Below are positions 1-48,055 of a stretch of 64,000 nucleotides of DNA, in pieces. The translations under genes were made by a program, and so were the position numbers. Origin of the DNA: an uncultured Acidobacteriota bacterium (GTDB lineage: Bacteria > Acidobacteriota > Polarisedimenticolia > J045); NCBI GenBank assembly GCA_964420365.1, contig CAYQTA010000077.1, positions 13,070-77,069 on the forward strand. Reading direction: 5' to 3'. The notes beneath the pieces were generated by a model. The model was not told where the DNA came from and made no database searches. It worked only from the letters and a program-made list of their open reading frames with translations. Every line of letters begins with the position of its first letter. Positions within the stretch are counted from its first letter, which is position 1.

Positions 1-269
1 CCCACCGGGCCCGGGGAAACCGATGGGGGTCGGCGGCTCCGCCGCCCGCGGGCCCGGTGCAGTCCGTGCTCCCGCGTGGCGCCCCCGGCTCCCGCAGGAA
101 ACCCGGAACGCCCGAGGGGCCTTCGCCTGAGAAGTACGCCCTTCCGCACCGGCCCGCAACGAGAACCCGTGGCAGGATCACCGCATGTCACGTTCCGGGA
201 TCGCCCGGGTCGGTTCGCCTCGGCCCACGGGGCGGCCCCGGGCCACCCCGCTCCCCGGAGGTCCGTCCG

Positions 270-2474
270 ATGAACGGTTCCCGTCCCCACGACGTCGGCA
301 TCGAGATCCGTACCCTCGCCGGCGCCGACTTCTGGTTGCCCGAGGAGTTCGAGGGGCTGCGCGAGCTGGCCTACAACCTCTGGTGGAGCTGGAACCCCCG
401 GGCGCGGATGCTGTTCTCCAGCATCCACCCGGCCCTGTGGAACCGGTACCTCAACCCGGTCGAGGTCCTGATGCACGTGGACCCGCCCCACTGGGAGTCC
501 CTCCAGCTCTCGGATGCCTTCCAGGCCGCCTACGACATGGTGCTCTCCGAGTTCCGTCGCTACATGGAAGGCAGGCCGGAGCCCTGGTTCCGGCGGGCCT
601 TCCCCGGGTGGGACCGGGGTCCGATCGCCTACGTCTCCACCGAGTACGGCATCCACGAGAGCCTCGGGATCTACTCCGGCGGGCTGGGGGTCCTCTCGGG
701 CGACCACGTCAAGGCGGCCTCGGACCTGGGGCTGCCGTTCGTCGCCGTGGGCCTGCTCTACCGGCGCGGGTACTTCCGGCAGACGATCGACGCCGAGGGA
801 CGGCAGCAGCACTTCTACCCGGACTTCGACCTGGGCCGTCTCCCCGTGCTGCCCGTCCTGGATCACCACGGTCGCCCGCTGGTCGTCTCGGTGCCCCTCC
901 TGGACCGGAAGGTTCACCTCAAGGTGTACAAGGTCCAGGTGGGACGGGTCCCGGTCCTCCTGCTCGACTCGGACATCCCCCAGAACGAGCCGCAGGACCG
1001 CCCGATCACGCACATTCTCTACGTACGCGGCCGGGAAATGCGGCTCGCCCAGGAGATGTGCCTCGGCATCGGGGCGGCCCGCGCGATCCGCGCGCTCGGG
1101 ATCGAGCCGAGCGCCTGGCATCTCAACGAGGGGCACGTCGCGTTCCTCGCCCTCGAGCGGATCCGCGAGGAGATGCACGGCGGGGAACGCTTCCACCGGG
1201 CCATCGAGCTGGCGCGGCGGAACGTCGCATTCACGACGCACACGCCGGTTCCCGCGGGCAACGAGACGTTCGACGCGGACCTGGCGCGCCTCTACCTCGG
1301 GGGCTGGGCGTTGCAGCTCCGGGTCTCCCTGCGGGACCTGATGGCCCTCGGCCAGGTCCACCCGGAACGCGACGGAGAACCGTTCAACATGACCGCCCTC
1401 GCGCTCCGCGTCTCCTCGTTCCGCAACGGCGTCAGCCGTCGCCACGGCGAGGTCTCCCGCGAGATGTGGAGGGACCTGTTCCCCGGCGAGGAGCCGCCGA
1501 TCACCTCGATCACGAACGGGGTCCACGTCTCGACGTGGGTGGGCCTCGAGCTGCGCGACCTCTTCGTCCGGGTGATCGGCACCGACTGGGAGGAGACCGC
1601 GGGCCGCCCGGAGGACTGGCGCGGGGCGGTGAGCCGGATCCCGGACGACGAGCTCTGGACCGCCCACGAGGCACAGAAGCGGCGCCTGATCCGCTCGGCA
1701 CGCGAGAACCTCCGCCGCATGTACGCGCGCCACGGCGCCTCCCCCCGCTTCCTGGCATCGATCGAGCAGATGCTCGACCCGCGGGCGCTCACGATCGGTT
1801 TCGCGCGTCGCTTCGCGACCTACAAGCGGGCCGGCCTGGTCTTCACGGACATCCCGCGCCTGCGCCGCATCCTCGGTGACCCGGACCGTCCGCTCCAGAT
1901 CATCTTCGCCGGCAAGGCCCATCCCGCCGACCTGGCGGGGCAGGACCTGATCGCGAAGATCTTCCGCATCGCCCAGGGAGACGACTTCCGCGGCAGGATC
2001 GTCTTCCTCGAGGACTACGACACGCGGATCGCGCGCCTGATGGTCCAGGGAGTCGACGTCTGGCTGAACAACCCCCGGCGTCCCCTCGAGGCGAGCGGCA
2101 CGTCCGGCCAGAAGGCGGCGGCCAACGGTGCGCTCAATCTCTCGGTCCCGGACGGCTGGTGGATCGAGGGCTACTCGCCGGACGTCGGCTGGTCGATCGG
2201 TGGTGTCGAGGCCCTCCCGGACGAACGGGAGCAGGACGAACGGGACGCGGCGGCCCTCTACGAGCTGCTGGAGAACGAGGTGATCCCCCTGTTCTGGGAC
2301 CGGGACGAGGAAGGACTGCCCCGGGGCTGGATCGCGCGGATGCGCGCCTGCATCGGGGAACTCGTCCCGCGGTTCAGCGCGGCGCGGATGGTCGGGGAGT
2401 ACGTCGACCGGGCCTACGCCCCCCTCGCCGGGGCCGGTGCTCCCGGCGAACGGCCCCCGGGAGCGTCCGCCTAG
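270..2474 (+). CDS. glgP: alpha-glucan (glycogen/maltodextrin) phosphorylase, GlgP family with DUF3417-type N-terminus
   Basis: 735-aa frame with N-terminal motif LAYNLWWSWNP typical of the alpha-glucan phosphorylase family; ATG at 270 preceded by GGAG; upstream in-frame extension (57..269) is Arg/Pro-rich low complexity. Confidence 0.85.
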   Translation: MNGSRPHDVGIEIRTLAGADFWLPEEFEGLRELAYNLWWSWNPRARMLFSSIHPALWNRYLNPVEVLMHVDPPHWESLQLSDAFQAAYDMVLSEFRRYMEGRPEPWFRRAFPGWDRGPIAYVSTEYGIHESLGIYSGGLGVLSGDHVKAASDLGLPFVAVGLLYRRGYFRQTIDAEGRQQHFYPDFDLGRLPVLPVLDHHGRPLVVSVPLLDRKVHLKVYKVQVGRVPVLLLDSDIPQNEPQDRPITHILYVRGREMRLAQEMCLGIGAARAIRALGIEPSAWHLNEGHVAFLALERIREEMHGGERFHRAIELARRNVAFTTHTPVPAGNETFDADLARLYLGGWALQLRVSLRDLMALGQVHPERDGEPFNMTALALRVSSFRNGVSRRHGEVSREMWRDLFPGEEPPITSITNGVHVSTWVGLELRDLFVRVIGTDWEETAGRPEDWRGAVSRIPDDELWTAHEAQKRRLIRSARENLRRMYARHGASPRFLASIEQMLDPRALTIGFARRFATYKRAGLVFTDIPRLRRILGDPDRPLQIIFAGKAHPADLAGQDLIAKIFRIAQGDDFRGRIVFLEDYDTRIARLMVQGVDVWLNNPRRPLEASGTSGQKAAANGALNLSVPDGWWIEGYSPDVGWSIGGVEALPDEREQDERDAAALYELLENEVIPLFWDRDEEGLPRGWIARMRACIGELVPRFSAARMVGEYVDRAYAPLAGAGAPGERPPGASA

Positions 2475-3049: not shown

Positions 3050-3532
3050 CTACCAGTCGGAGTAGCGCGACCCGTCGAGCGCGTAGTCCTGGGACTTCGA
3101 GAAGACGTCGTACAGGTTGTCACAGGAATCGTTCCGCTCGTCCGGATCGTCCTCGTACCCGCGGCAGTCCCAGGACGCCTCCCCGGTCATCGGGTCCACG
3201 GGGATCCGGCGCAGGAACTTGAGCACGACCGGCTCCTGGTCCGCCGCCGGCTTGACCTCGACCCCCTCCACCAGCATCTCGAGGTCCTTCGGGTACATCA
3301 TCCACTCCAGGTCCCAGGGCTCGATCTGTCCGTGCACCGCGTACTCGTGGTAGAGGTCGATCGCGTCCCGCATCATCCGCAGCTTCCGTTTCAGCTCGAT
3401 CTCCTTCAGCTTGCGATGATGATGGTGGACCAGCGGCTGGGCGGCCAGCGCCAGGATCGACATCAGGGCGAGGACCACCAGCATCTCGATGAACGTCAGT
3501 CCCCGTTCGTGCCCCTCGCGTTCCGTCGTCAT
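3050..3532 (-). CDS. pseudopilin with prepilin-type N-terminal cleavage/methylation domain (GspG / type IV pilin-like)
   Basis: Internal ATG at 3530-3532 gives 160 aa starting MTTEREGHERGLTFIEMLVVLALMSILA (classic G-FTLIE prepilin motif plus hydrophobic helix); GGAGG RBS; longer track ORF (3050..3844) has Arg-rich junk N-terminus. Confidence 0.8.
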   Translation of the reverse strand: MTTEREGHERGLTFIEMLVVLALMSILALAAQPLVHHHHRKLKEIELKRKLRMMRDAIDLYHEYAVHGQIEPWDLEWMMYPKDLEMLVEGVEVKPAADQEPVVLKFLRRIPVDPMTGEASWDCRGYEDDPDERNDSCDNLYDVFSKSQDYALDGSRYSDW

Positions 3533-3551
3533 CGATCGCTTCCTCCGGTCC

Positions 3552-5939
3552 TTACCTACGGGGCACCCCCCCGCCGCGTCCACCGCGTCGGCCGCGGAAC
3601 AGCTCCCGCAGCCTGCCGCCGACCCGGCCGAGGAACGAGCGATGCCGGGGACACGGGCCCGGAAGCCGGTCCCGCGGGAACACCTCCCGGACCCGGGTCG
3701 GACAGCCGGGCGTGGCCCGGCCGCCGGTCTCCGGGTCGATCTCCACGACCGCAACGCCGGCCGGCGCCTCCGGCAGCGGCGCGAGAAGGTCGGGAGCGGG
3801 CGCCCGGACGATCTCGCCCACGACCGGCAGTGCCGCGCCCGCACCCGACAGCGCGGCCGGCTTCCCGTCGTCCCGCCCGACCCAGGTGACGACCACCGCG
3901 TTGCCCGAGACCAGCGCGAACCAGGCGTCGCGTCCCCGCTGGCTCGTCCCGGTCTTGACCGCGGGCACGCGGTCTCCCGTCCAGGCCAGGATGCGGCGGC
4001 CGGTACCGCGGCGAGCCACGTCCCGCATCATGTCGAGGACCATCCAGCAGGCCTCCGCCGGCAGGACCCGTTCCCCGGCGGGCACCGGCCGCAGGGCCGG
4101 CGCCTCCTCCCCCGCTCCCGCGGCGAGCCCCCGGACCAGGTGGGGCCGGACCCGGCGCCCGAGGGTCGCCAGCGCACCGTACGCGGCCGCCAGATCCAGC
4201 GGCGACACCTCGAGGGTCCCGAGGGGCAGCGACGGGACGTCCGGAACGCCCGGGAAGCCGGCGGCCGTCGCCCACCGGGCCAGTTCCCGGTGCCCGAGGG
4301 CGAGGCCCAGCCGGACGAACGGAACGTTCCAGGAGTGCACGAGCGCCTCCCGGAGGGTCACTTCGCCGTGCCAGGCCCCGTCGTGGTTGCGGGGTCGCCA
4401 CGGGCCCCGCGGGGTGGCGATCTCGAGGGGAGCGTCCTCGAGGCGGCTCGCGGGAACGAACCGGCCGGAGGCCAGGGCGGCGAGCGCGACGAACGGCTTG
4501 AAGGAGGAACCGGGCTGCCGCCGGGCGGCGAGGGCCCGGTCGAATCCCCCGGGAACTCCCCGTCGCCCACCGACCAGCGCGATCACCTCCCCGGAGGCCG
4601 GGCGCAGGACGATCACCGCGCCCTCGAGGGGGCGCCGGGCGGGCCGGTCCCGTTCCAGCCGGCGCAGTTGCCGTTCGAGGGCCCGCCGGGCCAGGCCCTC
4701 GAGGAACGGATCGATGCTGGTGTGGACCGTGACCGGTACCGGCCCGGGAGCCGGCTCCCATCCCCGCCGGGCGAGCTCGCGGCGAACCGCGTCGAGGACG
4801 TCCCCGCCGGGGTCGAGCCGGCGAGGTGGCGGTGCGACCCCCAGCGGCGTTCTCCGCGCCGCCTCCGCCTCGGACGGATCCAGCCAACCGAGTGCCGCCA
4901 TCCTCCCGAGCACCCAGTTCCGGCGCTCCCGGGCCGCCTCGGGATGGCGGCGGGGATCGAAGCGCCCCGGCGAGGAGATCATCCCGGCGAGGGTGGCCAT
5001 CTCGGGAAGGCGCAGGTCCCCCACGTCCTTGCCGAACCAGAAGCGGCTCGCCGCGGGGATCCCGACGATCGAGACGGAACCGTCCTGCCCGAGGTAGACC
5101 TCGTTCAGGTAGGCCTCCAGGATCTCCTCCTTGGACATCCGGGTCTCGATCCACGCGGCGAGGAGGGCCTCCCGGAGCTTGCGCCCCAGCGTCCGGCGGC
5201 TGCCGACGACGCGGTTCTTGACGAGCTGCTGGGTGATCGTGCTTCCGCCCTGGAGCGGTCCCCCTCCCCTCAGGTCGGCCCACAGGGCCCGCAGGATCGC
5301 CCGGGGGTCGATCCCCCGGTGTCGCCAGAAACGGCCGTCCTCGGCGGCGAGCACCGCACGAACCAGGCGCTCGGGGAAGGCCGCGAGGGGGAGCGGCCGA
5401 CGTTCCTGCAGGTGCCGACCGTGGAATGACCCGAGCAGGAACGGCTCCAGCGTGAAGGCGCGGAGGCGTCGCCCGTCGGCCCCGAGGAGCCGCTCGATCC
5501 TGCCGTCCCGCACGACGACGCGCACCCAGGCGGCCGGGAGGCGGCCGCCCGGAACCGGGCAGGCCCGCCGGTGGATCTCGAGCCCATCCCCCCGTTCCCG
5601 CCAGCTCCCCGGCAGGCGGGCGGCCTCCCGCGCCTTCCGGTACCCGAGGGCCCGGAGCGCCGCGGCGAGGCCGCGCGGGTCGAGGTTCATCCCCTCCTCG
5701 AGGACGGGAGGGGCCGAGAGCACCCGGACCGGGGCCAGCCGGGGCGCCCGGCGCAGCCGCCGCACGGCCCGTTCTCCGCTGACGGCGAGGGCGAGGAACC
5801 CCCAGGCGGCCAGGGCAAGGGCAAGGGCGATCCCCCCCGCCCACCAGCGGGCCCGCGACGGCCGGGAGCGCCGAGGCGATCGCCGGGACGATCCCGCCAC
5901 CTTCCGCCTCCTGGTCGTCGTCTTCCGGCCTCGCGCCAC
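3552..5939 (-). CDS. mrcA: class A penicillin-binding protein (PBP1A-type bifunctional transglycosylase/transpeptidase)
   Basis: Glycosyltransferase-51 motifs EDGRFWRHRGID and GGSTITQQL; transpeptidase SSFKP (SxxK) and KTGTS motifs; Arg-rich cytoplasmic tail followed by TM helix; GTG start. Confidence 0.85.
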   Translation of the reverse strand: MARGRKTTTRRRKVAGSSRRSPRRSRPSRARWWAGGIALALALAAWGFLALAVSGERAVRRLRRAPRLAPVRVLSAPPVLEEGMNLDPRGLAAALRALGYRKAREAARLPGSWRERGDGLEIHRRACPVPGGRLPAAWVRVVVRDGRIERLLGADGRRLRAFTLEPFLLGSFHGRHLQERRPLPLAAFPERLVRAVLAAEDGRFWRHRGIDPRAILRALWADLRGGGPLQGGSTITQQLVKNRVVGSRRTLGRKLREALLAAWIETRMSKEEILEAYLNEVYLGQDGSVSIVGIPAASRFWFGKDVGDLRLPEMATLAGMISSPGRFDPRRHPEAARERRNWVLGRMAALGWLDPSEAEAARRTPLGVAPPPRRLDPGGDVLDAVRRELARRGWEPAPGPVPVTVHTSIDPFLEGLARRALERQLRRLERDRPARRPLEGAVIVLRPASGEVIALVGGRRGVPGGFDRALAARRQPGSSFKPFVALAALASGRFVPASRLEDAPLEIATPRGPWRPRNHDGAWHGEVTLREALVHSWNVPFVRLGLALGHRELARWATAAGFPGVPDVPSLPLGTLEVSPLDLAAAYGALATLGRRVRPHLVRGLAAGAGEEAPALRPVPAGERVLPAEACWMVLDMMRDVARRGTGRRILAWTGDRVPAVKTGTSQRGRDAWFALVSGNAVVVTWVGRDDGKPAALSGAGAALPVVGEIVRAPAPDLLAPLPEAPAGVAVVEIDPETGGRATPGCPTRVREVFPRDRLPGPCPRHRSFLGRVGGRLRELFRGRRGGRGGGVPRR

Positions 5940-6053
5940 GGGTCTCCTCCACCGGCGCCATCATGGCACCGCCCCGCCGGCGATCGCCACGCCCGCGTGG
6001 GCGCCCGGCGCCCCCCGTGGCAGACTGGATCGCACGTCCACGGAGGATTCGCG

Positions 6054-7193
6054 ATGCCCGCTTTCCGTCTCGTCGTTCCGGCAGTCCTGGCCGCGCTACT
6101 CCTCGTGCCGGCAGCCGTCCTTGCCCAGCAGTCCCCCCGCGCGGCCTGCGAGCCCGGGACCGGTCCCTCCGTCGACCGGGAGGACGTGCTGGCCCTCTCC
6201 CGCGGGGGCAACCCGGTGGAGCTGGCGCCGGGCGCCACGCTCCTCGCCACCCTGGACCGGGAGACGCTCTGCCCCGACCTGCCCGACGGGATCCCTTGCG
6301 TCGTTCCCGGGCCGGTACGCCTCGCCTGTACCCGCGTCGCGGGAGACGTGGACCTCGCGGGGATCGTCGTGCGCGGGGACCTGGTCCTCGACGGGGCGGA
6401 GCTCGAGGGCTCGCTCCATCTCGCCGGGGTGCAGGTCCTGGGGGCGGTCCGGTTCGCCGGGGCCGAGATCGCCGGCGACGTCCTCCTGGACGACGTGCTG
6501 GCGTCGCGCGGGATCGTCGGCGACGACGCGGGGATCCGGGAGGGGCTGAGCCTCCGGCGCCTCCGCGTCGTCGGCGACCTCTCGGTCTCCGGCTGCGAGA
6601 CCGGTGGCGCGCTGCAGGTGGCGGACAGCCTGGTCACCGGGGAGGCCGACCTCTCCCTCGACCGGGGCACGTCGATCTCGGTGACCAACGTCGCGGTGCT
6701 CGAGGACCTGGTCCTCGAGTCGACCCGGATCGACGAGGACGTGCACCTGGAGCGGGTCGGGATCGGTGGCTCCCTCGACACCGACGAGCTGGACGTGCGG
6801 GGCGACATGGCGATCGTCGGCGCGCAGGTGGCCGAGGACGTCTCCATCGCCGGCAGGATCCGCGGCGGTCTCCGCGTGGCCGACACCAGCCTCGAAGGAG
6901 ACCTGGAGCTCATGGAGGCCACGGTGAAGGGGCCGGTGGAGCTGCAGGCCGTCCGCACCGAGGGAGAGGTCTACCTCGACGAGGCCCGGCTCGAACGCGG
7001 CCTCCGGGTGACCGACTCGTCGATCGAGGAGGGTATCGACCTCGGCGAGAGCACGATCCACGGAGACGTCGTCCTCTCGGGAAGCCGCTTCGGGGGACCC
7101 GTCGATGCGAGCGAGGCCCGGCTCGACGCGGCGCCCCGCGTCGTCGCCTGCACGCCGCCGGATCCCCTGTCGGACGCCGCCGGGGACGACTGA
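6054..7193 (+). CDS. secreted repeat protein (imperfect ~20-aa Asp/Gly/Val/Leu repeats, beta-helix-like)
   Basis: ATG at 6054 then signal peptide MPAFRLVVPAVLAALLLVPAAVLAQQ; body made of repeats such as GDVDLAGIVVRGDLVLDGAELEGSLHLAGVQVLGAVRFAGAEIAGDVLL; strong GC3 bias. Confidence 0.6.
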   Translation: MPAFRLVVPAVLAALLLVPAAVLAQQSPRAACEPGTGPSVDREDVLALSRGGNPVELAPGATLLATLDRETLCPDLPDGIPCVVPGPVRLACTRVAGDVDLAGIVVRGDLVLDGAELEGSLHLAGVQVLGAVRFAGAEIAGDVLLDDVLASRGIVGDDAGIREGLSLRRLRVVGDLSVSGCETGGALQVADSLVTGEADLSLDRGTSISVTNVAVLEDLVLESTRIDEDVHLERVGIGGSLDTDELDVRGDMAIVGAQVAEDVSIAGRIRGGLRVADTSLEGDLELMEATVKGPVELQAVRTEGEVYLDEARLERGLRVTDSSIEEGIDLGESTIHGDVVLSGSRFGGPVDASEARLDAAPRVVACTPPDPLSDAAGDD

Positions 7194-7307
7194 ACGGGCG
7201 CGAACTTCGTCGCCGCCAGTGACTTGCCTTCCGGGGCGGCCGGACCCAGCGTCTTGCCGGGGAGGTCGCACGCCGGGCGGTGTCATGCCCGGAAGGAGCA
7301 GCTCGCC

Positions 7308-7901
7308 ATGACGACGAAGACCCTCGTCCGGATCGTTCTCCTCCTGGTCCTCGCCGCGGTCCTCGCGGCCCCCGTGCCGACCCTGGCGGCGGACCTGGCC
7401 GGCACCACCTGGGACCTCGGCGGCAACCTCTACGGGAAGATCAGGAAGGTGGACCAGATGTCCCTCGACCTCTCCTCCGCCGAGGTGCGCCTCGAGTTCC
7501 ACGAGGACGGTACGTGCCTGCTGACGATCGACCTGCCGGAGCGGTCGGCCTTCTCCCTCGCGTCCGCGAGGACCCCGCTGGGGGCGACGTCCTGCCCGGT
7601 GGACCTCTGCGTCTCCGGTCGCTGGCACCAGGGCAGGAAGACGCGTTTCACCGTGGACTTCAACGACACGGACCTGGTCGCCCTGATCCAGCCCCTCGCC
7701 CTGATGATCTACCGGACGACGGCGGACGTGCCGGACGTGAGGATCCGGACCGACCGGGCCAGGGGAAAGGTGGCGAAGGACGGGGGATCCCTCCGGCTGA
7801 AGGTGAAGGTCAAGGCGCAGGTCCGGGCGTCGGAGGACGCGAAGCCCCGCAAGTTCGTCACCCGGCTGGCCCTGACCGGCCGGCCGGTCCCGGGAGAGTG
7901 A
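7308..7901 (+). CDS. secreted hypothetical protein
   Basis: ATG at 7308 preceded by GGAAGGAG; signal peptide MTTKTLVRIVLLLVLAAVLAAPVPTLA; GC3-biased frame. Confidence 0.55.
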   Translation: MTTKTLVRIVLLLVLAAVLAAPVPTLAADLAGTTWDLGGNLYGKIRKVDQMSLDLSSAEVRLEFHEDGTCLLTIDLPERSAFSLASARTPLGATSCPVDLCVSGRWHQGRKTRFTVDFNDTDLVALIQPLALMIYRTTADVPDVRIRTDRARGKVAKDGGSLRLKVKVKAQVRASEDAKPRKFVTRLALTGRPVPGE

Positions 7902-7928
7902 CGGGCGCAGAGCGCACCCGCACCGGCC

Positions 7929-8717
7929 CTACAGGGTGACCTTCTGGACCCGGCTGCCGGGCACGATGTCCCTCCGCCCGTCGGCGAAGCGGACCTGGGC
8001 CTTGTGACCGCCGTCGTAGTCCTTCGCCCAGACCTCGATGGCGACCCGCTTCCCCTCGTACCGCCCCGGGCGCGAGGAAGGGCGGTCGATCCCTCGCCAC
8101 ACCCGGACGAACGGGTTCCGCTCCAGCTCGTGGGCGACGGTGGTCGGCTCCCCGTGCCCGGGATAGAGCGTCGTCTCCCCGGGCAGGGCCAGGACCTTCT
8201 CGAGGATCGTCTGCTGGAGTTCCTCGAACGTGCCGTGGCCCGGGTGGACGGTGCTGCCGACGCTGCCGCGGAAGACCGTGTCCCCGCACCAGAACCCGAC
8301 CCCGGGGACGTGCAGGCCGAGCTGGCCCCGCGTGTGCCCCGGCAGGTGGACGACCTCGGCGGTCCAGGCCGCGAACTCGAACCGGTGCCCTTCCTTGACG
8401 ACGCCGGTAGCCCCCGGGGTCCGGGCCTTCTCGAGGGGATGGGCGAGGACCGGGGCGTCCAGGTTCCGCGCGAGGAACTCGTTCCCCGCCGAGTGGTCGT
8501 AGTGCCCGTGGGTGCAGAGGATCGCCACGATCCTGACCCCGTGACGCCGGACCATCTCGAGGATCGCCGGCGGGTCCGCACCGGTATCGACCAGGAGTCC
8601 CCGTCCTTCCTCCCGGCCCGCGACCAGCCAGCTGTTCACCTTCCAGCCGGCATGCTGGATGCGGTCGATGATCACGCGCAGCTCCCGCGGATCCTCCGCC
8701 TTGACCGCGTTCAGCAT
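7929..8717 (-). CDS. MBL-fold metallo-hydrolase (glyoxalase II-like)
   Basis: ATG at 8715-8717; motif ILCTHGHYDHSAGN (HxHxDH metallo-beta-lactamase signature) and downstream His/Asp ligands; C-terminal ~55-aa extension. Confidence 0.8.
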   Translation of the reverse strand: MLNAVKAEDPRELRVIIDRIQHAGWKVNSWLVAGREEGRGLLVDTGADPPAILEMVRRHGVRIVAILCTHGHYDHSAGNEFLARNLDAPVLAHPLEKARTPGATGVVKEGHRFEFAAWTAEVVHLPGHTRGQLGLHVPGVGFWCGDTVFRGSVGSTVHPGHGTFEELQQTILEKVLALPGETTLYPGHGEPTTVAHELERNPFVRVWRGIDRPSSRPGRYEGKRVAIEVWAKDYDGGHKAQVRFADGRRDIVPGSRVQKVTL

Positions 8718-11992: not shown

Positions 11993-12529
11993 TCAGCGAC
12001 GAACGCGGGCGAGGAGGATCGCGGCCACCGACTTGGCATCCCGGATCTCTCCCCGGAGAACCATCTCCACCGCCTCGTCGAAGGGAACCTCGAGGACCTC
12101 GATCACCTCGTCGGGATCGAGGTGGCGGCTCCCGGCCGCGAGCCCGTGGGCCTCGTAGAGCCAGATCACCTCGTCGGTGAACCCCGGGGTGGTCAGGATC
12201 GAGCCCAGGGGAACCAGGCGCTCCGCCCGCCACCCGGTCTCCTCCTCGACCTCCCGCAGGGCGCAGGCCTCCGGGGGCTCGCCGGGATCGAGCTTCCCCG
12301 CCGGGACCTCGTGGATGAACCCGCCCGCCGCGTGGCGGAACTGCCGGATCAGCACGACGCGGCCGTCCGGGAGAAAGGGGAGGACCGCCGCGGCTCCCGG
12401 GTGCCGGATGGTCTCGAGCACGGCCCGTTTCCCGCCCGGCAGCACGACCTCCTCCCGGTCCACCCTGATCAGCTTCCCCTCGAAGACACGCTCCGAGGAA
12501 ACCACCCGGCCCTTGTCCTCCCCGTTCAC
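11993..12529 (-). CDS. NUDIX hydrolase (ADP-ribose pyrophosphatase-like)
   Basis: GTG start at 12527-12529 after AGGAGG; Nudix box GKLDPGEPPEACALREVEEETG; N-terminus VFEGKLIRVDREEVVLPGGKRAVLE resembles ADP-ribose pyrophosphatases. Confidence 0.75.
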   Translation of the reverse strand: MNGEDKGRVVSSERVFEGKLIRVDREEVVLPGGKRAVLETIRHPGAAAVLPFLPDGRVVLIRQFRHAAGGFIHEVPAGKLDPGEPPEACALREVEEETGWRAERLVPLGSILTTPGFTDEVIWLYEAHGLAAGSRHLDPDEVIEVLEVPFDEAVEMVLRGEIRDAKSVAAILLARVRR

Positions 12530-13233
12530 CGCTGCCTCCTCCCCGGCGGACAGTCCGCCGCCCCGGGAAACCACGGCAGGAGAGCGGTCAGCGGACCCGA
12601 CTCGATCACCAGGTCGGCCGCCGCCCGTACCCGCTCGTCCTTCGGGTGGAAGGCGATCGCCGTCCCGACCCGCTCGAAGGCGGCCAGGTCGTTCCAGTGG
12701 TCGCCGACGAACGCGCACCGCCGCGGCGAGAGCCCCATCTCCCGGGCGATCATCTCGACCGCTTCGCCCTTGCCGTCCACGTCCCACGGGGTGGCCTGCC
12801 ACCCGGTGATCCGCCCGTCGGGGCCGAACTCGACCCGGTTGGTGAGGACCCGGTCGAACGGCAACCCGGGCAGGAGCGTCTCGATCACCACGTCCAGCGT
12901 GCCGGAGATCACGGCGAGCCGGTAGCCGCGGCGGTGAAGCTCGACGACGGTCTCGCGGGCCCCCGGGGCCGGGGCGAGCTCCCGGCGGATCACCCGCACG
13001 ATGTCGTCCCGCCGGACGTCCCGTTCCATCCAGTCGCCCACGTCGAGGGCGACCCAGTCCGCGTAGGCGAGCTCTCCCGCGAGGAACCGCCGGAACCGCT
13101 CCTCGTTCCGCGCGTCGTCCCCGAGGAATGCGCGGTTCAGAACCTGCCAGACGGTCTGTTCCTCCGGGTGATGGACGAGGGTTCCGTCCACGTCGAAGAA
13201 AACCGCACAGGCGTCGACCACTCGCGTCAGCAT
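12526..13233 (-). CDS. HAD-superfamily hydrolase (phosphoserine phosphatase-like subfamily IB)
   Basis: Internal ATG at 13231-13233 gives MLTRVVDACAVFFDVDGTL (HAD motif I DxDGT), later GDHWNDL motif; stop overlaps NUDIX start (GTGA). Confidence 0.75.
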   Translation of the reverse strand: MLTRVVDACAVFFDVDGTLVHHPEEQTVWQVLNRAFLGDDARNEERFRRFLAGELAYADWVALDVGDWMERDVRRDDIVRVIRRELAPAPGARETVVELHRRGYRLAVISGTLDVVIETLLPGLPFDRVLTNRVEFGPDGRITGWQATPWDVDGKGEAVEMIAREMGLSPRRCAFVGDHWNDLAAFERVGTAIAFHPKDERVRAAADLVIESGPLTALLPWFPGAADCPPGRRQR

Positions 13234-13460
13234 GCCATCTCCCCGGGGCCGGCGTCCCGGCCGGCAGATTGTGGCACGGGCGCCGACCGGCCGCCGCCTC
13301 GTTGACCCCCGGGGGATCCGTCTGGTATCGTCCGGATCCGGAGGGCGTTCATGCCGTCCATGGTCTCGGAGAGCTCGTCCCCCCGTCCCGGCGCCCCGTC
13401 CCGCGTCTCCGCCGCGGCGTCGGCCCATCCCCACCGATCCGGGAGACCCAGGAGGGAACC

Positions 13461-14600
13461 GTGAGCATCGTCGTCGCCCTGGCCAACCAGAAGGGAGGCT
13501 GCGGGAAGACCACGTCCGCCATTCACCTGGCGGCCGCCTTCGCCCGGCGGGGACTGCGCGTCCTGCTGGTCGACCTGGATGCCCAGGGGCACGCCACCCT
13601 GGGCCTCGGCGTCCGCGTACCGCCGGACCGTCCCTCCCTCTCGGAGATCCTGTCCCACACGCCCCTCACCGGGCTCGGCCCGGGCATCGAGCAGGCGATC
13701 GTCGCGGCGCGTCCCGGTATCGACATCGTACCGGCCAACCTCGGGCTGGCCGGCCTCGAGATCAAGCTGGCCGCGGTGCCCGGCAAGGAGGAACGGCTTT
13801 CCGAGCACCTCGCCCAGGTCCGCCGGGGCTGGGACGTCATCCTCCTCGACTGCCCTCCCAACCTGGGGCTCCTGACCGTGAACGCGATCACCGCGTCCCA
13901 CGAGGTCCTCGTGCCCTTCGACGCGACGCCGTTCGGCCTGCACGGGGTCGGGCGGGTCCTGGCCACCCTGGAACTCGTCGAGCGGCACACCCGGCACCGC
14001 GCCAGGGCCCGCGCCTTCGCCACCCTCTGGAACGCCCGGGACTGGCACGCACGGGTCCTGGTCGAGCGGTTCCGCGAGGAGCACCCGGGCCTGGTCCTCG
14101 AGCCGCCGGTCCGCCGCAGCGTCCTGTTTCCCCGCGCCGCGGCGCGGGGACGCACGGTCGCCGAGCTGAACCCGCGGGCCGGTGGCTGGAAGGATTACCT
14201 GGCCCTGGCCGACGTGCTCGCGGAGGCGTGGGCCGAGCACCTCGGGGCGGCGGCGTCGGCCTTCTCCGGCCTCCGGGTCGTTCCCGGCGGGGTCGCGTTC
14301 GGCCACCCGGACCTCCCCCCCGAGCGGATCCGGATCGCCGGCGACTTCAACGACTGGCAGCCGGACGCGGGCGTCGAGCTGCGGCGGGACCGGGACGGTT
14401 CCTGGGAGAAGTTCCTGCCGGTCCCCCCGGGAACGTACGAGTACAAGTTCATCCTGGACGGGGAATGGATCCCCGACCCGGCCAATCCCCGGGTCCGTGT
14501 GAGTCGCCTCGGCACCCAGAACTCCCTCGTCGACGTTCCGCCGCCGCTGCCGGCCGAGCCGGCCGCGGTCCGTCCGGCGCCCCGTCCCGACCATCCGTGA
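13461..14600 (+). CDS. ParA/MinD-family P-loop ATPase fused to a C-terminal CBM48 (AMPK-beta-like glycogen-binding) domain
   Basis: GTG at 13461 after GGAGGGA; deviant Walker A KGGCGKTTSAIHLAAA, LVDLDAQG and ILLDCPP motifs of ParA/Soj; C-terminal GDFNDWQPD...GTYEYKFILDGEWIPDPANP matches the CBM48/AMPK1_CBM signature. Confidence 0.8.
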   Translation: MSIVVALANQKGGCGKTTSAIHLAAAFARRGLRVLLVDLDAQGHATLGLGVRVPPDRPSLSEILSHTPLTGLGPGIEQAIVAARPGIDIVPANLGLAGLEIKLAAVPGKEERLSEHLAQVRRGWDVILLDCPPNLGLLTVNAITASHEVLVPFDATPFGLHGVGRVLATLELVERHTRHRARARAFATLWNARDWHARVLVERFREEHPGLVLEPPVRRSVLFPRAAARGRTVAELNPRAGGWKDYLALADVLAEAWAEHLGAAASAFSGLRVVPGGVAFGHPDLPPERIRIAGDFNDWQPDAGVELRRDRDGSWEKFLPVPPGTYEYKFILDGEWIPDPANPRVRVSRLGTQNSLVDVPPPLPAEPAAVRPAPRPDHP

Positions 14601-15247
14601 ACCTCTCCGAGCGGGACCGGCGCGACCTCGAGGAGCTGGCCGGGATCTTCCTTTCCCCCGCGCCCACCTCGCCGGGTGCGGCGACCACCCCGGCGCCGGC
14701 TCCCGCGGCGGGCCTCTGCCTGCTGACATCCCTCGACGGGGGCGATGAACCGCGCCCCGCACTCCTCCGCGCCGCGCGGGACGTCGCGCGCCCCCTGCCC
14801 CTCCCGTCCGGGAAACCCGGCGCCGTCCATCCCCTCCTCCGTGCCAGGACCGGCCCCCGGCGGGTGCTCATCGACGGTCCCGGCGTGATGCCGGTCCCCT
14901 CCACCGACGGGCCGGTGCTCCGGTGGGGCCTGGCCGCCACGTCCCGGATCCTGGCCTGGTTCCCCGCACGGACCGGTCTCCTGCGCGGGGTCGAGGACTT
15001 CCTGCTCGTCCTTCACGAGGCCTGCCCGGGACCGGAACTCGGCTGGCTCCGGGCGCCCGACCTTCCGCCCGCACCGATCGAGGCGGTGCTCGCGTCCTGG
15101 CGACCCGGGGTTCCCGGGGCGCGGGCGGTCGCTCTCGGCACCTGGCAGCCCGGGGAGGAGTTCCCCCCGGCAGCGCGGGAGTTCCTGGTGACCGCGCCCC
15201 CCGCTCGGCTCGCGCCCCCGGTTCACACGCCGCGCCAGGCGACGTAG
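14597..15247 (+). CDS. hypothetical protein, translationally coupled to the ParA-CBM48 gene
   Basis: GTG at 14597 overlapping the upstream TGA (GTGA); charged N-terminus SERDRRDLEELAGIF then Pro/Ala-rich linker then globular region; very strong GC3 bias supports coding. Confidence 0.5.
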   Translation: MNLSERDRRDLEELAGIFLSPAPTSPGAATTPAPAPAAGLCLLTSLDGGDEPRPALLRAARDVARPLPLPSGKPGAVHPLLRARTGPRRVLIDGPGVMPVPSTDGPVLRWGLAATSRILAWFPARTGLLRGVEDFLLVLHEACPGPELGWLRAPDLPPAPIEAVLASWRPGVPGARAVALGTWQPGEEFPPAAREFLVTAPPARLAPPVHTPRQAT

Positions 15248-15708
15248 GCCCAGTCCAGGGCGAGCAGCACCGCGAAGGCCGCGGCCGCAATCCACCGGGC
15301 CCGGGCGGAGCCGAAACCGATCCGCCACCGGGGAAGGCGGAAGAGCCACTGGACGGCCGCCACCGGGGTCCAGGCAAGGAACGCGAGGAGGCCAGCGGCC
15401 ACCAGCGGGTTCCACGCGAGCGCCTCGCCGACGTGCCCGCGCGCCAGCGCGAGCAGCAGGCGCGTCGTCCCGCAGGTGAGACAGGGGTGACCGGTCAGGC
15501 GATGGAACGTGCAGGGGGGAAGGAGCCGCACCAGCGGTTCGAGGGGCAGGAACGCCAGCACGAGCACCACGAGCAGGCCGACCGTGGTGATCGCCACCTC
15601 CAGGTCGGCCGTCGGGTGGTCCGGCGGGAAGGCACGCAACACCAGGGGGCCCACCCGCCGGACCCGGAGGGGTTCGTTCCGTCCCCGGTCTTCAGTCACC
15701 CCGTCCAC
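15223..15708 (-). CDS. DUF2752-family membrane protein
   Basis: Motif HPCLTCGTTR characteristic of DUF2752; four predicted TM helices; 3-prime end overlaps convergent upstream gene by 25 nt. Confidence 0.6.
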   Translation of the reverse strand: MDGVTEDRGRNEPLRVRRVGPLVLRAFPPDHPTADLEVAITTVGLLVVLVLAFLPLEPLVRLLPPCTFHRLTGHPCLTCGTTRLLLALARGHVGEALAWNPLVAAGLLAFLAWTPVAAVQWLFRLPRWRIGFGSARARWIAAAAFAVLLALDWAYVAWRGV

Positions 15709-39505: not shown

Positions 39506-40600
39506 CTACGCGTTGACGAAGCGGCCGGCGCGAACCGATCCGACGAGACCGAACGCGAAGAAGGTCGCCACCATCGCGGACCCGCCGTACGAGAGGACGG
39601 GGAGCGGCACGCCGATGGTCGGCAACACCCCGGTGACCATCCCGAGGTTCACGAAGATCTCCCCGGCCCAGAGGGACCCGACCCCGACCGCGAGAAACGT
39701 CCCCAGGTGGTCCTGGGCGAGGGCTGCCGTCCGGAAGGTCCGGAGGAGGAGCGAGAGGTAGACCCCGAGGACGAACAGCACCCCGACGAACCCGGTCTCC
39801 TCCGCGATCACCGCCAGGATGAAGTCGGTCTCCCGGGCGGGCAGGAAGTCCAGGCGCGACTGGCTGCCCCGGAAGAGCCCCTTGCCGGCCACCCCGCCGG
39901 ACCCGACCGCGATCCGGGACTGGATCACCTGGTACCCGGTCCCCGACGGGTCCCGCGAGGCGTCGAAGACCGTCAGGATCCGCTCCTTCTGGTACGGCTT
40001 GAGGACGAAGAACCAGGCGACCGGTGCGGCGAGGGCGGCGACGAGGGCGAGGGAGACCAGCACGCGGGGGCGGATGCCCGCGAGCCACGCGACGCCGAGG
40101 AAGAGCGGCCCGTAGGTGAGCGCCGTCCCCAGGTCGGGCTGCAGGGCGATCAGGACGACCGGGGTGCCGACGATCAGGGCGAGCCGCACCAGGCGGCCGA
40201 AACCGAGCTTTCCCGGGGCACCCGACAGGTACGCGGCGGCCGCCAGCACGGTGATCGCCTTCATCGGTTCCGAGGGCTGGATCCGGATCGGCCCCAGCTC
40301 GAACCAGGATCGCGCGCCGGCGATCGGGCGGGCGACCAGCGGGAGGAGCGCCAGGGTGACCAGCCCCGCCCCGTAGAGGATCCAGGCGTTGTCCGCCCAG
40401 TCGTGGTAGTCGATCCGCTGGACGATCCAGTAGACGACGATCCCGAGCAGCAGCCAGGCCGCCTGGCGGGCCGCGGGCCCGGTCCACGGGTCCGGGTGGC
40501 GTGCGTGCGTCGCCGACGCCACGGCGACGACGCCGACGATCCCGAGGACGACCAGGTGAAGGAGCGTCCCGAGATCGACGTCACTTCTTTGCCAGCGCAC
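39506..40600 (-). CDS. rodA: peptidoglycan glycosyltransferase RodA (SEDS family)
   Basis: FtsW/RodA/SpoVE family 10-TM protein with conserved ETDFILAVIAEETGFVG and GVLPTIGVPLPVLSYGGSAMV motifs; last gene of mre-mrd cluster. Confidence 0.85.
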   Translation of the reverse strand: MRWQRSDVDLGTLLHLVVLGIVGVVAVASATHARHPDPWTGPAARQAAWLLLGIVVYWIVQRIDYHDWADNAWILYGAGLVTLALLPLVARPIAGARSWFELGPIRIQPSEPMKAITVLAAAAYLSGAPGKLGFGRLVRLALIVGTPVVLIALQPDLGTALTYGPLFLGVAWLAGIRPRVLVSLALVAALAAPVAWFFVLKPYQKERILTVFDASRDPSGTGYQVIQSRIAVGSGGVAGKGLFRGSQSRLDFLPARETDFILAVIAEETGFVGVLFVLGVYLSLLLRTFRTAALAQDHLGTFLAVGVGSLWAGEIFVNLGMVTGVLPTIGVPLPVLSYGGSAMVATFFAFGLVGSVRAGRFVNA

Positions 40601-42404
40601 CGGTTTCCTCCCCGGCTCCCCGGGGGTGCCGTTCCAGCCAGCGGCGAAGCACGAGGGAGGCGATCGGGGCCGCCGTCTCGCCCCCGTGCCCGCCGTGCTC
40701 GACCAGGATCGCCCACGCGAGGCGCGGGTCGTCCACCGGGCCGAACCCGATGAACCAGGCGTTGTCCCCCGGGTCCTCCTCCGCGTCCCGGGAGACCACC
40801 TGGGCCGTCCCGGTCTTCCCGGCGACGACCACCCCCGGCACCCGTGCCCGCCGCGCGGTGCCGTGGTCCGATTCGACCACGTCGATCATCGCCGCCCGCA
40901 CCTGCTCGATCGTTCCGGGGTGCAGCCCCAGGGGAACCGGCGCGACGTTCCCCTCTCCCCCGACCTTCAGGTGCGGGTGGACCCGGAACCCGCCGTTGGC
41001 GATCGCGGCCGCGACGACCGCCATCTGCAGCGGCGTCACCTCGAGGGGGCCCTGGCCGATGGCCACGGAGATCGTCTCCCCCGGGTACCAGGGCTCGCCC
41101 CGGGTCCGGCGCTTCCAGGCGTCGTCGGGCACGATCCCGGCCGCCTCCCCCAGGAGCGGGATCCCGGTACGGGCCCCGAGGCCGAACCTCCTCGCCCACG
41201 CCGCGATCCGCTCGATCCCCAGCCGCTGGCCGAGGGTATAGAAGAAGATGTTGCACGAGCGGACGATCGCCTCCCGCAGGTCGACCTCCCCGTGCCCCCA
41301 GGTGCGGTGACAGTGGAACGTCCGGCCGTAGAACCGGGCGGCGCCGAGACAGCGGATCCGTTCCCCCCGCGCCAGCATTCCCTCCTCCAGGGCCGCGACA
41401 GCCATGACGATCTTGAACGTCGACCCCGGGGAATACACGCTGCCGATCACCCGGTCGTGGAGCGGGCGGCGCGGATCCTCGGTGAGCCGGGCCCACGCGG
41501 CCGGCGTCAGGCGGCCCTCGAACACGTTGGGATCGAAGCTCGGACCGGAATAGAGCCCGCGGACGGCCCCCGTGCGCGGGTCGAGGAACACGGCCGCGCC
41601 CGCCCGCTCCCCGAACGCCTCCCGGAGGTCACGCTGGAGGGCGGCCTCCAGGGTCAGCCGCACCGCCCGGCCATGCCGGGCCGGCTGGAGCACGGTCACC
41701 TCGCCGAGCGGCCGCCCCCGGGCATTGACCTCCTCGAGTACCCACCCGGGCCTGCCGCGCAGTTCGCGGTCCCACGCGCGCTCGACGCCGGTCCGGCCGA
41801 CCCGGTCGCCGGGCAGGAGATCGTCCCGCTCCCGCAGCTCCTTCTCGGTCGCCTCGGAAAGGTAGCCGATCACGTGGGCCGCGGCCTCCCCCAGGGGATA
41901 GTGGCGGCGGGCGATCACCGCGACGTCGATGGCCGGGAGGTCCTCCCGCCGCGCCTCGATCCTGGCGGCCGCCGCCAGGTCGACCCCGGAGAGCAGCACG
42001 ACCGGCAGGAAGCGCGGCAGTCTTGCGCCCCGCTCCAGCCGCTCGAGCATCGGGGCCGGGTCGCGGTCGAGCAGTTCCGCCAGGCGGCGGACCTCCGCCT
42101 CCGGGTCCCGGCAACGCTCCCGGTCGAGGGTCACGGCGAAGGCGGGGCGGTTGGTCGCGACCAGCTCGCCGCCGGCGTCCCGGAGAAGACCCCGGACCGG
42201 GCGGATCACCCGGCGGCGCAGCCGGTTCTCCTCGGCGAGACGCCGGTACTCGGGTCCCCGGACCACCTGGAGGTACCAGAAGATCCCCGCGTAGACCACG
42301 AACACGGCGACGACCACCACGCGGAGGACCAGCAACCGCCGCGCCAGCATCCGCGACAACTGGTACTCCACGTAGGGCCGGAGCTTGCGGTAGTCGATCC
42401 GCAT
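40581..42404 (-). CDS. mrdA: penicillin-binding protein 2 (elongasome transpeptidase)
   Basis: N-terminal TM + PBP dimerisation domain, transpeptidase STFK, SCN (SRN variant SCNIFF) and KTGTA motifs; ATG at 42402-42404. Confidence 0.85.
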   Translation of the reverse strand: MRIDYRKLRPYVEYQLSRMLARRLLVLRVVVVAVFVVYAGIFWYLQVVRGPEYRRLAEENRLRRRVIRPVRGLLRDAGGELVATNRPAFAVTLDRERCRDPEAEVRRLAELLDRDPAPMLERLERGARLPRFLPVVLLSGVDLAAAARIEARREDLPAIDVAVIARRHYPLGEAAAHVIGYLSEATEKELRERDDLLPGDRVGRTGVERAWDRELRGRPGWVLEEVNARGRPLGEVTVLQPARHGRAVRLTLEAALQRDLREAFGERAGAAVFLDPRTGAVRGLYSGPSFDPNVFEGRLTPAAWARLTEDPRRPLHDRVIGSVYSPGSTFKIVMAVAALEEGMLARGERIRCLGAARFYGRTFHCHRTWGHGEVDLREAIVRSCNIFFYTLGQRLGIERIAAWARRFGLGARTGIPLLGEAAGIVPDDAWKRRTRGEPWYPGETISVAIGQGPLEVTPLQMAVVAAAIANGGFRVHPHLKVGGEGNVAPVPLGLHPGTIEQVRAAMIDVVESDHGTARRARVPGVVVAGKTGTAQVVSRDAEEDPGDNAWFIGFGPVDDPRLAWAILVEHGGHGGETAAPIASLVLRRWLERHPRGAGEETGALAKK

Positions 42405-42405
42405 G

Positions 42406-42879
42406 TCAGTCCAGCCAGCCCCGCCGGGCCGCCCACCCGGCAAGGAGGACGCCCAGCACCGCGTTCACCGCCGCCATCGCGAGCCAGGTCCCCGGGCCGG
42501 GCACCGGTCCGGGCGGGAGGTCGAACAGGGCCACCAGGCCGAGCTCGAGCCCCCACGCGGCGAGGGAGCCGCCGAAGATCGCGATCGCCCGGGGCAGGGC
42601 CTGGCCGAGATCCACGAAGCCGGCGAGGAGGGCCAGCCCGTACGCGAGCGTCATGTCGACGAGGGCGTGGCAGCCGAACCACTTTCCGAAGGCCGCGTCG
42701 TCGAGGAGGCCGGCCACCAGGCCCACCAGGAGCGCGGGCCTGGTCCGTCCCGGGAGCGCCGCCACGAGGGCGACGACGAGCAGCGGATCCGCCAGGTGTG
42801 CGAGCGGACCCCCGAGGCGCAGCAGGGCCCCGAGGACCAGCGCCCCCGGCAGGAAGACGACCAGGGCCCGCGGTTTCAC
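42406..42879 (-). CDS. mreD: rod shape-determining protein MreD
   Basis: 157-aa polytopic membrane protein in canonical position between mreC and mrdA; GTG start overlapping mreC stop (GTGA). Confidence 0.7.
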   Translation of the reverse strand: MKPRALVVFLPGALVLGALLRLGGPLAHLADPLLVVALVAALPGRTRPALLVGLVAGLLDDAAFGKWFGCHALVDMTLAYGLALLAGFVDLGQALPRAIAIFGGSLAAWGLELGLVALFDLPPGPVPGPGTWLAMAAVNAVLGVLLAGWAARRGWLD

Positions 42880-43730: not shown

Positions 43731-43814
43731 CGGCCGCCCTCCCGCACGGGGCGCGGGAGCCGGGGATCCCCTGGTGCTGCCGGGAGACGGCGTACCCGCG
43801 CTGGAGAACCGGCG

Positions 43815-44846
<1,032 letters not shown>

Positions 44847-44944
44847 GGGTTCCTCCGGGGACGCGGCCGGTGGCCGCGCCGCGGGCAAATGCTAGCGAAC
44901 CCGGGGCTTTCCGACAAGGAAAAAACGCCCCGGAACAGCTCTCC

Positions 44945-47831: not shown

Positions 47832-48055
47832 CCGGCCCTCTCCCCGGGATCGGTCGCCCCGCGGCCGCGGTGCGGCCCCCGGCCGCCGGAGGCGCGCCCC
47901 GCCCGTGTTCTCCGGGTGGGGTGGTCCGCCCCGTTTCCAACTTGGTTCCCGGCGTCCGCGCGTGCAAATCCCCGAACGGCGCGAACTTGCCCCCCCCGGC
48001 GGGTTCGGGTAGATTCCGTGCGCCCTGCGGGGGCCCAGCTGGGAGGACTCTGCCC

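Follow-up and report, generated by a model that had tools for sequence, protein, structure and literature searches.

We analysed a 64,000-nt stretch of DNA (hereafter the window; ~73% GC) from an uncultured Acidobacteriota bacterium (contig CAYQTA010000077.1), which carries two overlapping genes on its forward strand. Gene A encodes a ParA (Soj-type) ATPase fused to a carbohydrate-binding module of family 48 (CBM48), and gene B encodes a lineage-specific partner protein. This two-gene unit may be an undescribed system that organises the glycogen stores of the cell. The features of gene A, with coordinates counted from the first nucleotide of the window, are as follows.

13461-14600, forward strand: gene A, ParA (Soj-type) ATPase fused to CBM48; 379 aa, GTG start
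13461-14243, forward strand: ATPase domain of A (residues 1-261), Pfam AAA_31 and CbiA, nearest to chromosomal Soj/ParA
13485-13511, forward strand: deviant Walker A motif NQKGGCGKT (residues 9-17), with signature Lys11 and P-loop Lys16
14244-14273, forward strand: inter-domain linker of A (residues 262-271), of varying length within the family
14274-14543, forward strand: AMPK-beta-type CBM48 beta-sandwich of A (residues 272-361), with W299, K329, W336 and N354
14544-14597, forward strand: Pro/Ala-rich C-terminal tail of A (residues 362-379)
13450-13456, forward strand: Shine-Dalgarno sequence AGGAGGG, read from the sequence, 4 nt before the GTG start of gene A
13302-13331, forward strand: candidate sigma-70-like promoter, TTGACC-18 nt-TATCGT, TG-extended, in the 230-bp gap between the divergent HAD gene and gene A

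The promoter candidate is a consensus match only, found once against 0.0 expected in 50 shuffles. GC content by codon position in gene A (0.78/0.51/0.92) is typical of coding sequence at 73% GC.

A ParA-type ATPase fused to CBM48

A preliminary description of the locus, made from the sequence alone, had proposed a ParA/MinD ATPase with a C-terminal CBM48, and the profile matches bear this out. AAA_31 aligned to residues 4-178 (E 5.9e-44), CbiA matched with an E of 3.8e-18, and AMPK1_CBM (PF16561) aligned to residues 289-361 (E 3.4e-10), where its 40.4 bits exceed the gathering score of 26.8. The sister model CBM_48 (PF02922) falls just under its threshold, at 20.5 bits against 22.4. Both strings on which the domain call had been based, GDFNDW and YEYKFILDGEW, are present in the translation. 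An AlphaFold2 model of the whole protein has a predicted local distance difference test score (pLDDT) of 89.8 and a predicted template-modelling score of 0.80; mean pLDDT drops to ~60 in residue block 261-270, in the linker region. The C-terminal tail is restricted in the family alignment to an Acidobacteria-like clade, other members having none or a different one.

Among 5.8 billion proteins, 1137 matched A at E <= 1e-5. ParA-type domains and PF16561 occur together in all of the best 120 of these 1137 homologues (346-460 aa, identity down to 32%), PF16561 being taken here from precomputed annotation. A locus scan was then made with one genome per GTDB species, from which the best 80 loci were taken. 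In all 80 the match to the query extends as far as residue 344 or beyond, and hence into the CBM, and all come from metagenome-assembled genomes (MAGs) with about a dozen phylum-level labels, among them Acidobacteriota, Myxococcota, Omnitrophota, Planctomycetota, Thermodesulfobacteriota/Desulfobacterota, Eisenbacteria, Rokubacteria, Gemmatimonadales, Zixibacteria, Krumholzibacteria, Margulisbacteria, Spirochaetaceae and sulfur-oxidising Gammaproteobacteria. One locus (L089) appeared to have a split gene, for which the gene caller had annotated an 89-aa CBM fragment only; this proved to be a gene-calling artefact, as tblastn recovered the full fusion in one frame. Because the fusion recurs as a single open reading frame (ORF) across many phyla, in 120 of 120 best homologues and at 80 loci, and because the split at L089 is explained, the ParA-CBM48 fusion is real, far beyond chance, and not the artefact of gene modelling that had initially to be considered. 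Databases label the homologues merely ‘AAA family ATPase’ or ‘chromosome partitioning protein’. The closest genome context is that of an Acidobacteria MAG (L001; 59% identity), whose gene order is that of the window: NUDIX and HAD genes on the other strand, A, B and a convergent DUF2752 gene.

The ATPase half resembles chromosomal Soj

Searched against the PDB with phmmer, the ATPase half matched Thermus Soj and a mycobacterial orphan ParA with E values of 1e-34 to 5e-42. Foldseek placed the model of A closest to the Soj/ParA structures 9a6n, 8ray and 2bek (target-normalised template-modelling score 0.92-0.93, 35-38% identity), with McdA, MinD, FleN and BcsQ structures giving poorer matches. 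The residues of the ATP-sandwich motifs (K11, K16, D38, D40 and D130) are invariant in a 25-member family alignment, on which all conservation counts given here are based. The NCBIfam models for specialised members of the family were not reached: NF041546 (ParA_partition) scored 104.3 bits where its cut-off asks for 180, and TIGR01968 (minD_bact) 32.4 bits where 212.9 are required. By these scores A is classed as neither a canonical partition ParA nor a MinD.

DNA contacts in Helicobacter pylori Soj (HpSoj) are made by the lysines K199, K227, K230 and K247 (PMC6393308). The HpSoj numbering was confirmed against the PDB sequence before these positions were mapped onto the family, with the following result.

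HpSoj K199: window R198, basic in 20 of 25 members
HpSoj Q194, which we take to be the equivalent of Bacillus subtilis Soj R189: window R193, basic in 24 of 25
HpSoj P226, which adjoins K227: window R218, basic in 24 of 25
HpSoj K230: window L222, basic in 14 of 25
HpSoj K247: window R239, basic in 13 of 25

The Soj DNA-contact positions are thus mostly basic across the family, and A appears to have kept the machinery needed to dimerise on ATP and to bind DNA non-specifically.

The CBM48 half keeps the sugar-contact residues

The best PDB matches to residues 289-359 were the CBMs of AMPK beta1 and beta2 (E ~3e-10), followed by SEX4 and the CBM48s of pullulanases. Glycogen binding by AMPK beta1 is abolished by W100G and K126Q and weakened by W133L (PMC6274970). 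Aligned residue by residue, W100 corresponds to W299 of A and W133 to W336, both tryptophans being present in 25 of 25 members, while K126 corresponds to K329, a position occupied by lysine in 15 members, arginine in 9 and histidine in one. G351 (25/25) and N354 (24/25) are also conserved. Such retention of sugar-contact residues across phyla is what would be expected of a working sugar-binding site, not of a fold recycled for protein binding.

Plant PTST proteins carry CBM48 modules that target to starch, and the same logic would apply to A. The CBM of AMPK beta and SEX4 are likewise cases in which a non-catalytic CBM48 brings another activity to a glucan, and A keeps the Trp/Lys/Trp set of AMPK beta (PMC6274970). 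The bacterial protein differs from all three in that its CBM48, whose binding is predicted, is fused to a ParA ATPase and not to a kinase scaffold, a phosphatase or a coiled coil.

Gene B and the peptide-bearing partners

Gene B starts on a GTGA overlap with A, as the preliminary description had stated, and the layout put forward there for its product (charged N-terminal peptide, Pro/Ala linker, globular domain) agrees with our analysis, which predicts a charged helix at the N-terminus and, behind the linker, a C-terminal part of alpha/beta type.

14597-15247, forward strand: gene B, partner protein of 216 aa, lineage-specific, GTG start
14597-14600, forward strand: GTGA start/stop overlap of A and B, the GTG of B lying over the TGA of A; translational coupling
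14603-14659, forward strand: N-terminal peptide of B, LSERDRRDLEELAGIFLSP (residues 3-21), proposed to bind and activate ParA
14660-14710, forward strand: Pro/Ala-rich linker of B (residues 22-38), variable among homologues, pLDDT < 50
14711-15196, forward strand: C-terminal alpha/beta domain of B (residues 39-200)

The same -4 overlap is found in L001 and in many further loci, and GC content by codon position in B is 0.81/0.62/0.89. No Pfam or NCBIfam model matched B, which hence has no ParB/Srx, helix-turn-helix (HTH) or CTP-binding domain. Five close homologues were found among the 5.8 billion proteins; a profile search of 1.84 billion representatives gave just ten relatives, so that a deeper alignment was not possible. 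The gene evolves fast, sharing 33% identity (E 1e-13) with its syntenic counterpart in L001. Opposite B, a DUF2752 membrane-protein gene (15223-15708, reverse strand) converges on it and overlaps its last 25 bases, an arrangement that is conserved in L001.

Residues 3-21 of B are nearly invariant in all five close homologues, and a helix is predicted at residues 5-19. In 35 of 84 loci the product of the gene that follows A has a conserved ParB-like peptide at its start, ahead of variable domains. In many lineages the peptide is (K)LGRGLEDISHLFLS; the form seen in Myxococcota-type loci is PRDLxDVLHYFLP. The LGRG core of this motif is also the core of the N-terminus of H. pylori ParB (HpParB), 1-MAKNKVLGRG-10, in which L7 and R9 are conserved among ParBs (PMC11229316). 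HpParB cannot do without R9 when it binds ParA, which it does near the dimer interface, and stimulation of Soj by Thermus Spo0J requires R10 (PMC11229316). A profile of the partner motif built without the window family was run on 3355 ORFs and returned 38 matches that reach 6 bits or more; 35 of the 38 lie directly after gene A. Gene B is translationally coupled to A and probably belongs to this positionally conserved class of partners with a ParB-like opening peptide. Its segment 6-RDRRDLEELAGIFLSP-21 corresponds to the partner motif in place and register, with R9 under the LGRG arginine when aligned by eye. A hidden Markov model with the window sequence in its seed gives B 16 bits; with the window family left out of the seed the score is 6-7 bits (E ~1-2). 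Because the independent profile gives so little, we claim no significance for the window protein, which likely belongs to the motif-bearing partners. The earlier suggestion that B is a ParA partner gains strength from the 35 loci; window B itself fits the peptide in position and register, with a low score.

Behind the peptide and a linker, the partner proteins carry at least six unrelated C-terminal domains. At least 20 loci have a partner whose domain is MinD/ParA-like and whose P-loop is degenerate (KGTGER, for example), and the MinD-like partners of L015 and L018 match Pfam ParA, AAA_31 and CbiA above threshold. The others comprise HTH with RodZ_C, AAA_22 and several unassigned domains, one of which is PD-(D/E)xK-like by eye. 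TadZ and CpaE, too, are degenerate MinD/ParA-like pseudo-ATPases; they carry a receiver-like domain, in place of which the MinD-like partners bear the LGRG peptide. Compared by hhalign, the window-B family aligned with the MinD-like partner group over 56 columns (E 0.015) and with the other partner groups through the N-terminal peptide alone. On these results homology between the C-terminal domain of B and those of the partner groups is unproven; it is possibly a very degenerate MinD-like domain. At two loci, L072 (1614-2969) and L049, the peptide-bearing partner is RodZ-like, with an HTH, a coiled coil, a transmembrane segment and RodZ_C, which hints that the ATPase can couple to the cell-shape machinery.

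Alpha-glucan genes near the fusion

The surroundings of the fusion were surveyed by unbiased clustering of all ORFs in the 84 loci, followed by Pfam assignment. An enzyme of glycoside hydrolase family 57 (GH57) or a GlgB lies within 6 kb in 16 of the 84 loci, and at least three different arrangements are represented. Thirteen Omnitrophota-type loci have a GH57 gene (E 8e-63) ~650 bp upstream of A; it is co-oriented with A, and a single gene for a small membrane protein separates the two. The operon of L013 runs from A through a MinD-like partner, a 231-aa protein and Cu-oxidase_4 to a protein bearing the LGKGLEDISTLFLS peptide, a Lys/Ala-rich region, DUF4912 and Glucodextran_B, which is followed by a GH57 branching enzyme. 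In L087, L088 and L089, similarly, A is accompanied by a MinD-like partner, some further genes, a DUF4912 protein with the motif and GH57+BE_C. The A-B pair of L015 is adjoined by GH57+BE_C, DUF4912 and a GT1/GT5 starch-synthase-like gene, and that of L072 is followed by a GH13 glgB. Among the 120 nearest DUF4912 proteins, 11 have long N-termini and all 11 bear the peptide; three of their contigs repeat the order A ... DUF4912 - GH57+BE_C.

The DUF4912 proteins of the Omnitrophota clade (L013 9719-11602; P0139-P0156; L087-L089) have a Lys-rich start and a peptide of the form LGKGL(E/K)DISHLFLS, and that of L013 contains long Lys/Ala-rich, histone-H1-like repeats. A window ORF at 46389-48059 was considered as a DUF4912 protein on a weak query match and rejected; it encodes instead a FecR-like protein that shares a Glucodextran_B-like beta-sandwich. 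A tblastn screen with E. coli GlgA/B/C/P/X and MalP/Q found one glgB only and was set aside as insensitive, because it missed GH57, DUF4912 and divergent synthases.

The preliminary description had linked A to glycogen, citing a glgP-family phosphorylase in the window. This gene is present (3-2474, forward strand; DUF3417 and Phosphorylase, running off the left edge) and is the sole glucan gene seen in the window, but it is 11 kb off and not syntenic. PBP1, pilin-like, metallo-beta-lactamase, sulfatase, symporter, NUDIX and HAD genes lie between it and A. As evidence it does not hold, and it probably shows merely that the organism handles alpha-glucan. The link is carried instead by the conserved sugar-binding residues (PMC6274970) and by the GH57, GlgB or DUF4912 genes that adjoin the fusion in the 16 loci.

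A proposed system for glycogen particles

From sequence we infer a function for the pair. The most likely reading, at a probability of roughly 0.45, is that A and B make up a ParA-type system of two components that is devoted to particles of alpha-glucan (glycogen) in the cytoplasm. ATP-bound A would form the usual sandwich dimer, which would use its conserved basic face to bind nucleoid DNA non-specifically and would present two CBM48 modules, giving it a dimer-dependent avidity for glycogen particles. The N-terminal peptide of B, with Arg9, would dock near the dimer interface like the N-terminus of ParB, leading to ATP hydrolysis and release of A. Repeated cycles would spread the particles along the nucleoid, so that both daughters inherit them and they do not coalesce, by analogy with McdA/McdB and carboxysomes.

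With the Soj/ParA-Spo0J/ParB systems A shares its nearest ATPase domain in sequence and structure, the deviant Walker A with its signature lysine and the basic DNA-contact positions, and the partner opens with an LGRG-type peptide like the N-terminus of ParB (PMC11229316). They differ in the additional C-terminal CBM48, in the ParA_partition score below cut-off and in the absence from B of a ParB/Srx, HTH or CTPase domain; a parS site was not identified either, no search aimed at one having been made. In the McdA/McdB system, too, the gene next to that of the ParA-type ATPase encodes a small partner that evolves fast and is charged at its N-terminus; the cargo of that system, like the one proposed here, is a non-DNA metabolic body, and the fold of A matches McdA (6non/6nop). 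However, A is just 20-22% identical to Cyanothece McdA, the proposed cargo is a polysaccharide and not a protein shell, and, whereas McdB is the cargo adaptor, here the ATPase itself bears the putative cargo-binding module. PhaM-type tethering follows the same concept, in that it ties the polyhydroxybutyrate storage granule to the nucleoid as a means of passing granules on to both daughters. PhaM is neither an ATPase nor does it have a CBM, unlike the A-B pair, which would be ATP-cycled with an activator. MinD belongs to the same ATPase family, and the C-terminal appendage of A could gain avidity on ATP-driven dimerisation as the membrane-targeting helix of MinD does (PMC11407121); MinE, moreover, is a partner that works through a short N-terminal region. 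A lacks an amphipathic helix, with ~90 residues of CBM48 and the Pro/Ala tail in its place, and B is unrelated to MinE.

Several observations weigh against this proposal. Glycogen binding, DNA binding and stimulation of the ATPase by B are all predicted from sequence comparison. Window B matches the partner motif weakly when scored independently, and its C-terminal domain has no assignable fold. There is no glycogen gene within 11 kb of A in the window, where the flanks are NUDIX, HAD, DUF2752 and AsmA genes, and 68 of the 84 loci have no alpha-glucan enzyme within 6 kb. Most of the GH57 cases come from Omnitrophota and reflect inherited synteny; as they mostly share one phylum and a common ancestry, they count as few independent events. 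Finally, direct binding of cargo by A would leave no clear need for the classical cargo-bound activator.

The main rival account, which we regard as unlikely and still worth serious weight, keeps the same parts and makes glycogen the matrix and not the cargo. By a MinD-like logic, CBM48 would stand in place of the membrane-targeting helix, and A would bind the granule surface bivalently on dimerisation, recruiting clients that bear the LGRG peptide (MinD-like pseudo-ATPases, DUF4912, RodZ-like and AAA_22 proteins) and releasing them on hydrolysis. The output would be control of granule initiation, number or enzyme loading and not segregation, as for plant CBM48 scaffolds such as PTST2. One peptide on at least six unrelated C-terminal domains, including DUF4912 beside a GH57 branching enzyme, does look like a set of several clients more than a single adaptor, and the C-terminus, where the CBM is placed, is where this ATPase family has its matrix-binding determinants (PMC11407121). 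However, the Soj-type DNA-contact positions stay basic, which would be unnecessary were the nucleoid without a role, and an action of the clients on glycogen would have to be assumed.

It is improbable that A is a sensor of glycogen status, in which the CBM would report the load and modulate a ParA-type switch with another output, such as the nucleoid, division or transcription through MerR or extracytoplasmic function (ECF) sigma factors. AMPK is indeed regulated by the glycogen that its CBM binds (PMC6274970, PMC2642990). In 15 loci the gene directly upstream of the fusion is of the MerR family, ~11 loci have an ECF sigma factor downstream, and some partners (L072, L049) have HTH domains. 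Yet no output domain is conserved, the MerR and ECF sigma genes are confined to Myxococcota and gamma-type loci and do not occur in the window, and regulatory proteins are a minority of the ParA family.

A role in positioning or regulating an envelope machine for polysaccharide synthesis and export, with the CBM binding nascent alpha-glucan, appears more improbable again. BcsQ in cellulose secretion would be the precedent, and A has a weak Pfam match to CBP_BcsQ (E 1e-6), but any protein of this fold could give such a match. In 16-23 Omnitrophota-type loci the genes ahead of the fusion encode an outer-membrane porin of the alginate-export type and a 195-aa membrane protein, and the gene behind it a 112-aa membrane protein, although this context is found in one lineage only and neither the window nor most phyla have it. 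Moreover, the GH57+BE_C enzymes associated with the fusion are branching enzymes of cytoplasmic glycogen, and A has no membrane-targeting helix. Least probable of all is that A is an ordinary DNA-partition ParA of a chromosome or mobile element whose CBM48 fold serves protein-protein interaction alone: its domain is nearest chromosomal Soj, the partner peptide resembles the N-terminus of ParB (PMC11229316) and sources label the proteins ‘chromosome partitioning protein’, but no ParB/Srx-domain protein adjoins it (the partners being MinD-like or otherwise non-ParB), ParA_partition reaches 104 bits of a required 180, the exact sugar-contact residues are conserved across phyla, which is unexpected of a purely protein-binding domain, and the window offers no mobile-element context.

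To our knowledge, next to nothing has been established about the way in which bacteria position their glycogen granules, control their number and hand them on to daughter cells. Full-text literature searches, of incomplete coverage, found nothing relevant on ParA-type ATPases with CBM48, AMPK1_CBM or glycogen, and nothing on the function of DUF4912. A 2024 review of ParA/MinD ATPases lists as cargos DNA, the divisome, microcompartments, flagella, chemoreceptor arrays and conjugation or secretion machines, and does not mention glycogen, carbohydrate or storage granules (PMC11407121). More doubtfully than the glycogen-particle proposal itself, A-B could be the first dedicated ATP-driven system for partition and organisation of a storage polysaccharide in prokaryotes, in which a fused CBM48 replaces the cargo adaptor, so that the dimer would hold glycogen bivalently, and a portable LGRG peptide marks clients including DUF4912. 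If true, this would add a new cargo class for ParA/MinD ATPases and a new coupling of ParA to cargo or matrix, through a fused CBM and not an adaptor protein or membrane helix. It would also give DUF4912 its first functional context, and engineered glucan bodies could be positioned with a compact module of just two genes.

Lineage-specific neighbourhoods and other window genes

Neither mobile-element context nor carboxysome genes were seen among the window ORFs scanned. Two recurrent gene blocks surround the fusion in other lineages. An Omnitrophota-type block, around 3500-8000, occurs in ~23 loci (L011, L021, L028, L032, L064 and others) and has the order alginate-export-like porin, (GH57), 195-aa membrane protein, fusion, 112-aa membrane protein, 145-aa protein and DUF134. 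The 195-aa membrane protein has a beta-sandwich-like C-terminal domain, and the 145-aa protein a Lys-rich N-terminus and a ‘VTHYFPHV’ motif. None of the proteins of this block contains the LGRG peptide; the Lys-rich 145-aa protein is a candidate for the partner there. In the Myxococcota-type block (L017, L019, L036, L046, L054, L055, L061, L073 and L085) a second ParA paralogue lies ~2 kb upstream and a MerR-family gene directly upstream of the fusion, which is followed in turn by a MinD-like partner, a 231-aa protein that by eye resembles PD-(D/E)xK proteins, and an ECF sigma factor.

Divergent from A in the window are a NUDIX hydrolase and a HAD-family phosphatase (11993-13230, reverse strand), and the same pair occupies the same place in L001. 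A NUDIX ADP-sugar pyrophosphatase of E. coli hydrolyses ADP-glucose, and by analogy a role of the window pair in glycogen-precursor metabolism is conceivable. Further along, at 39506-46492 on the reverse strand, the window contains a cluster of rodA, PBP2, mreC and mreB, followed by a gene for a GAF-GGDEF diguanylate cyclase.

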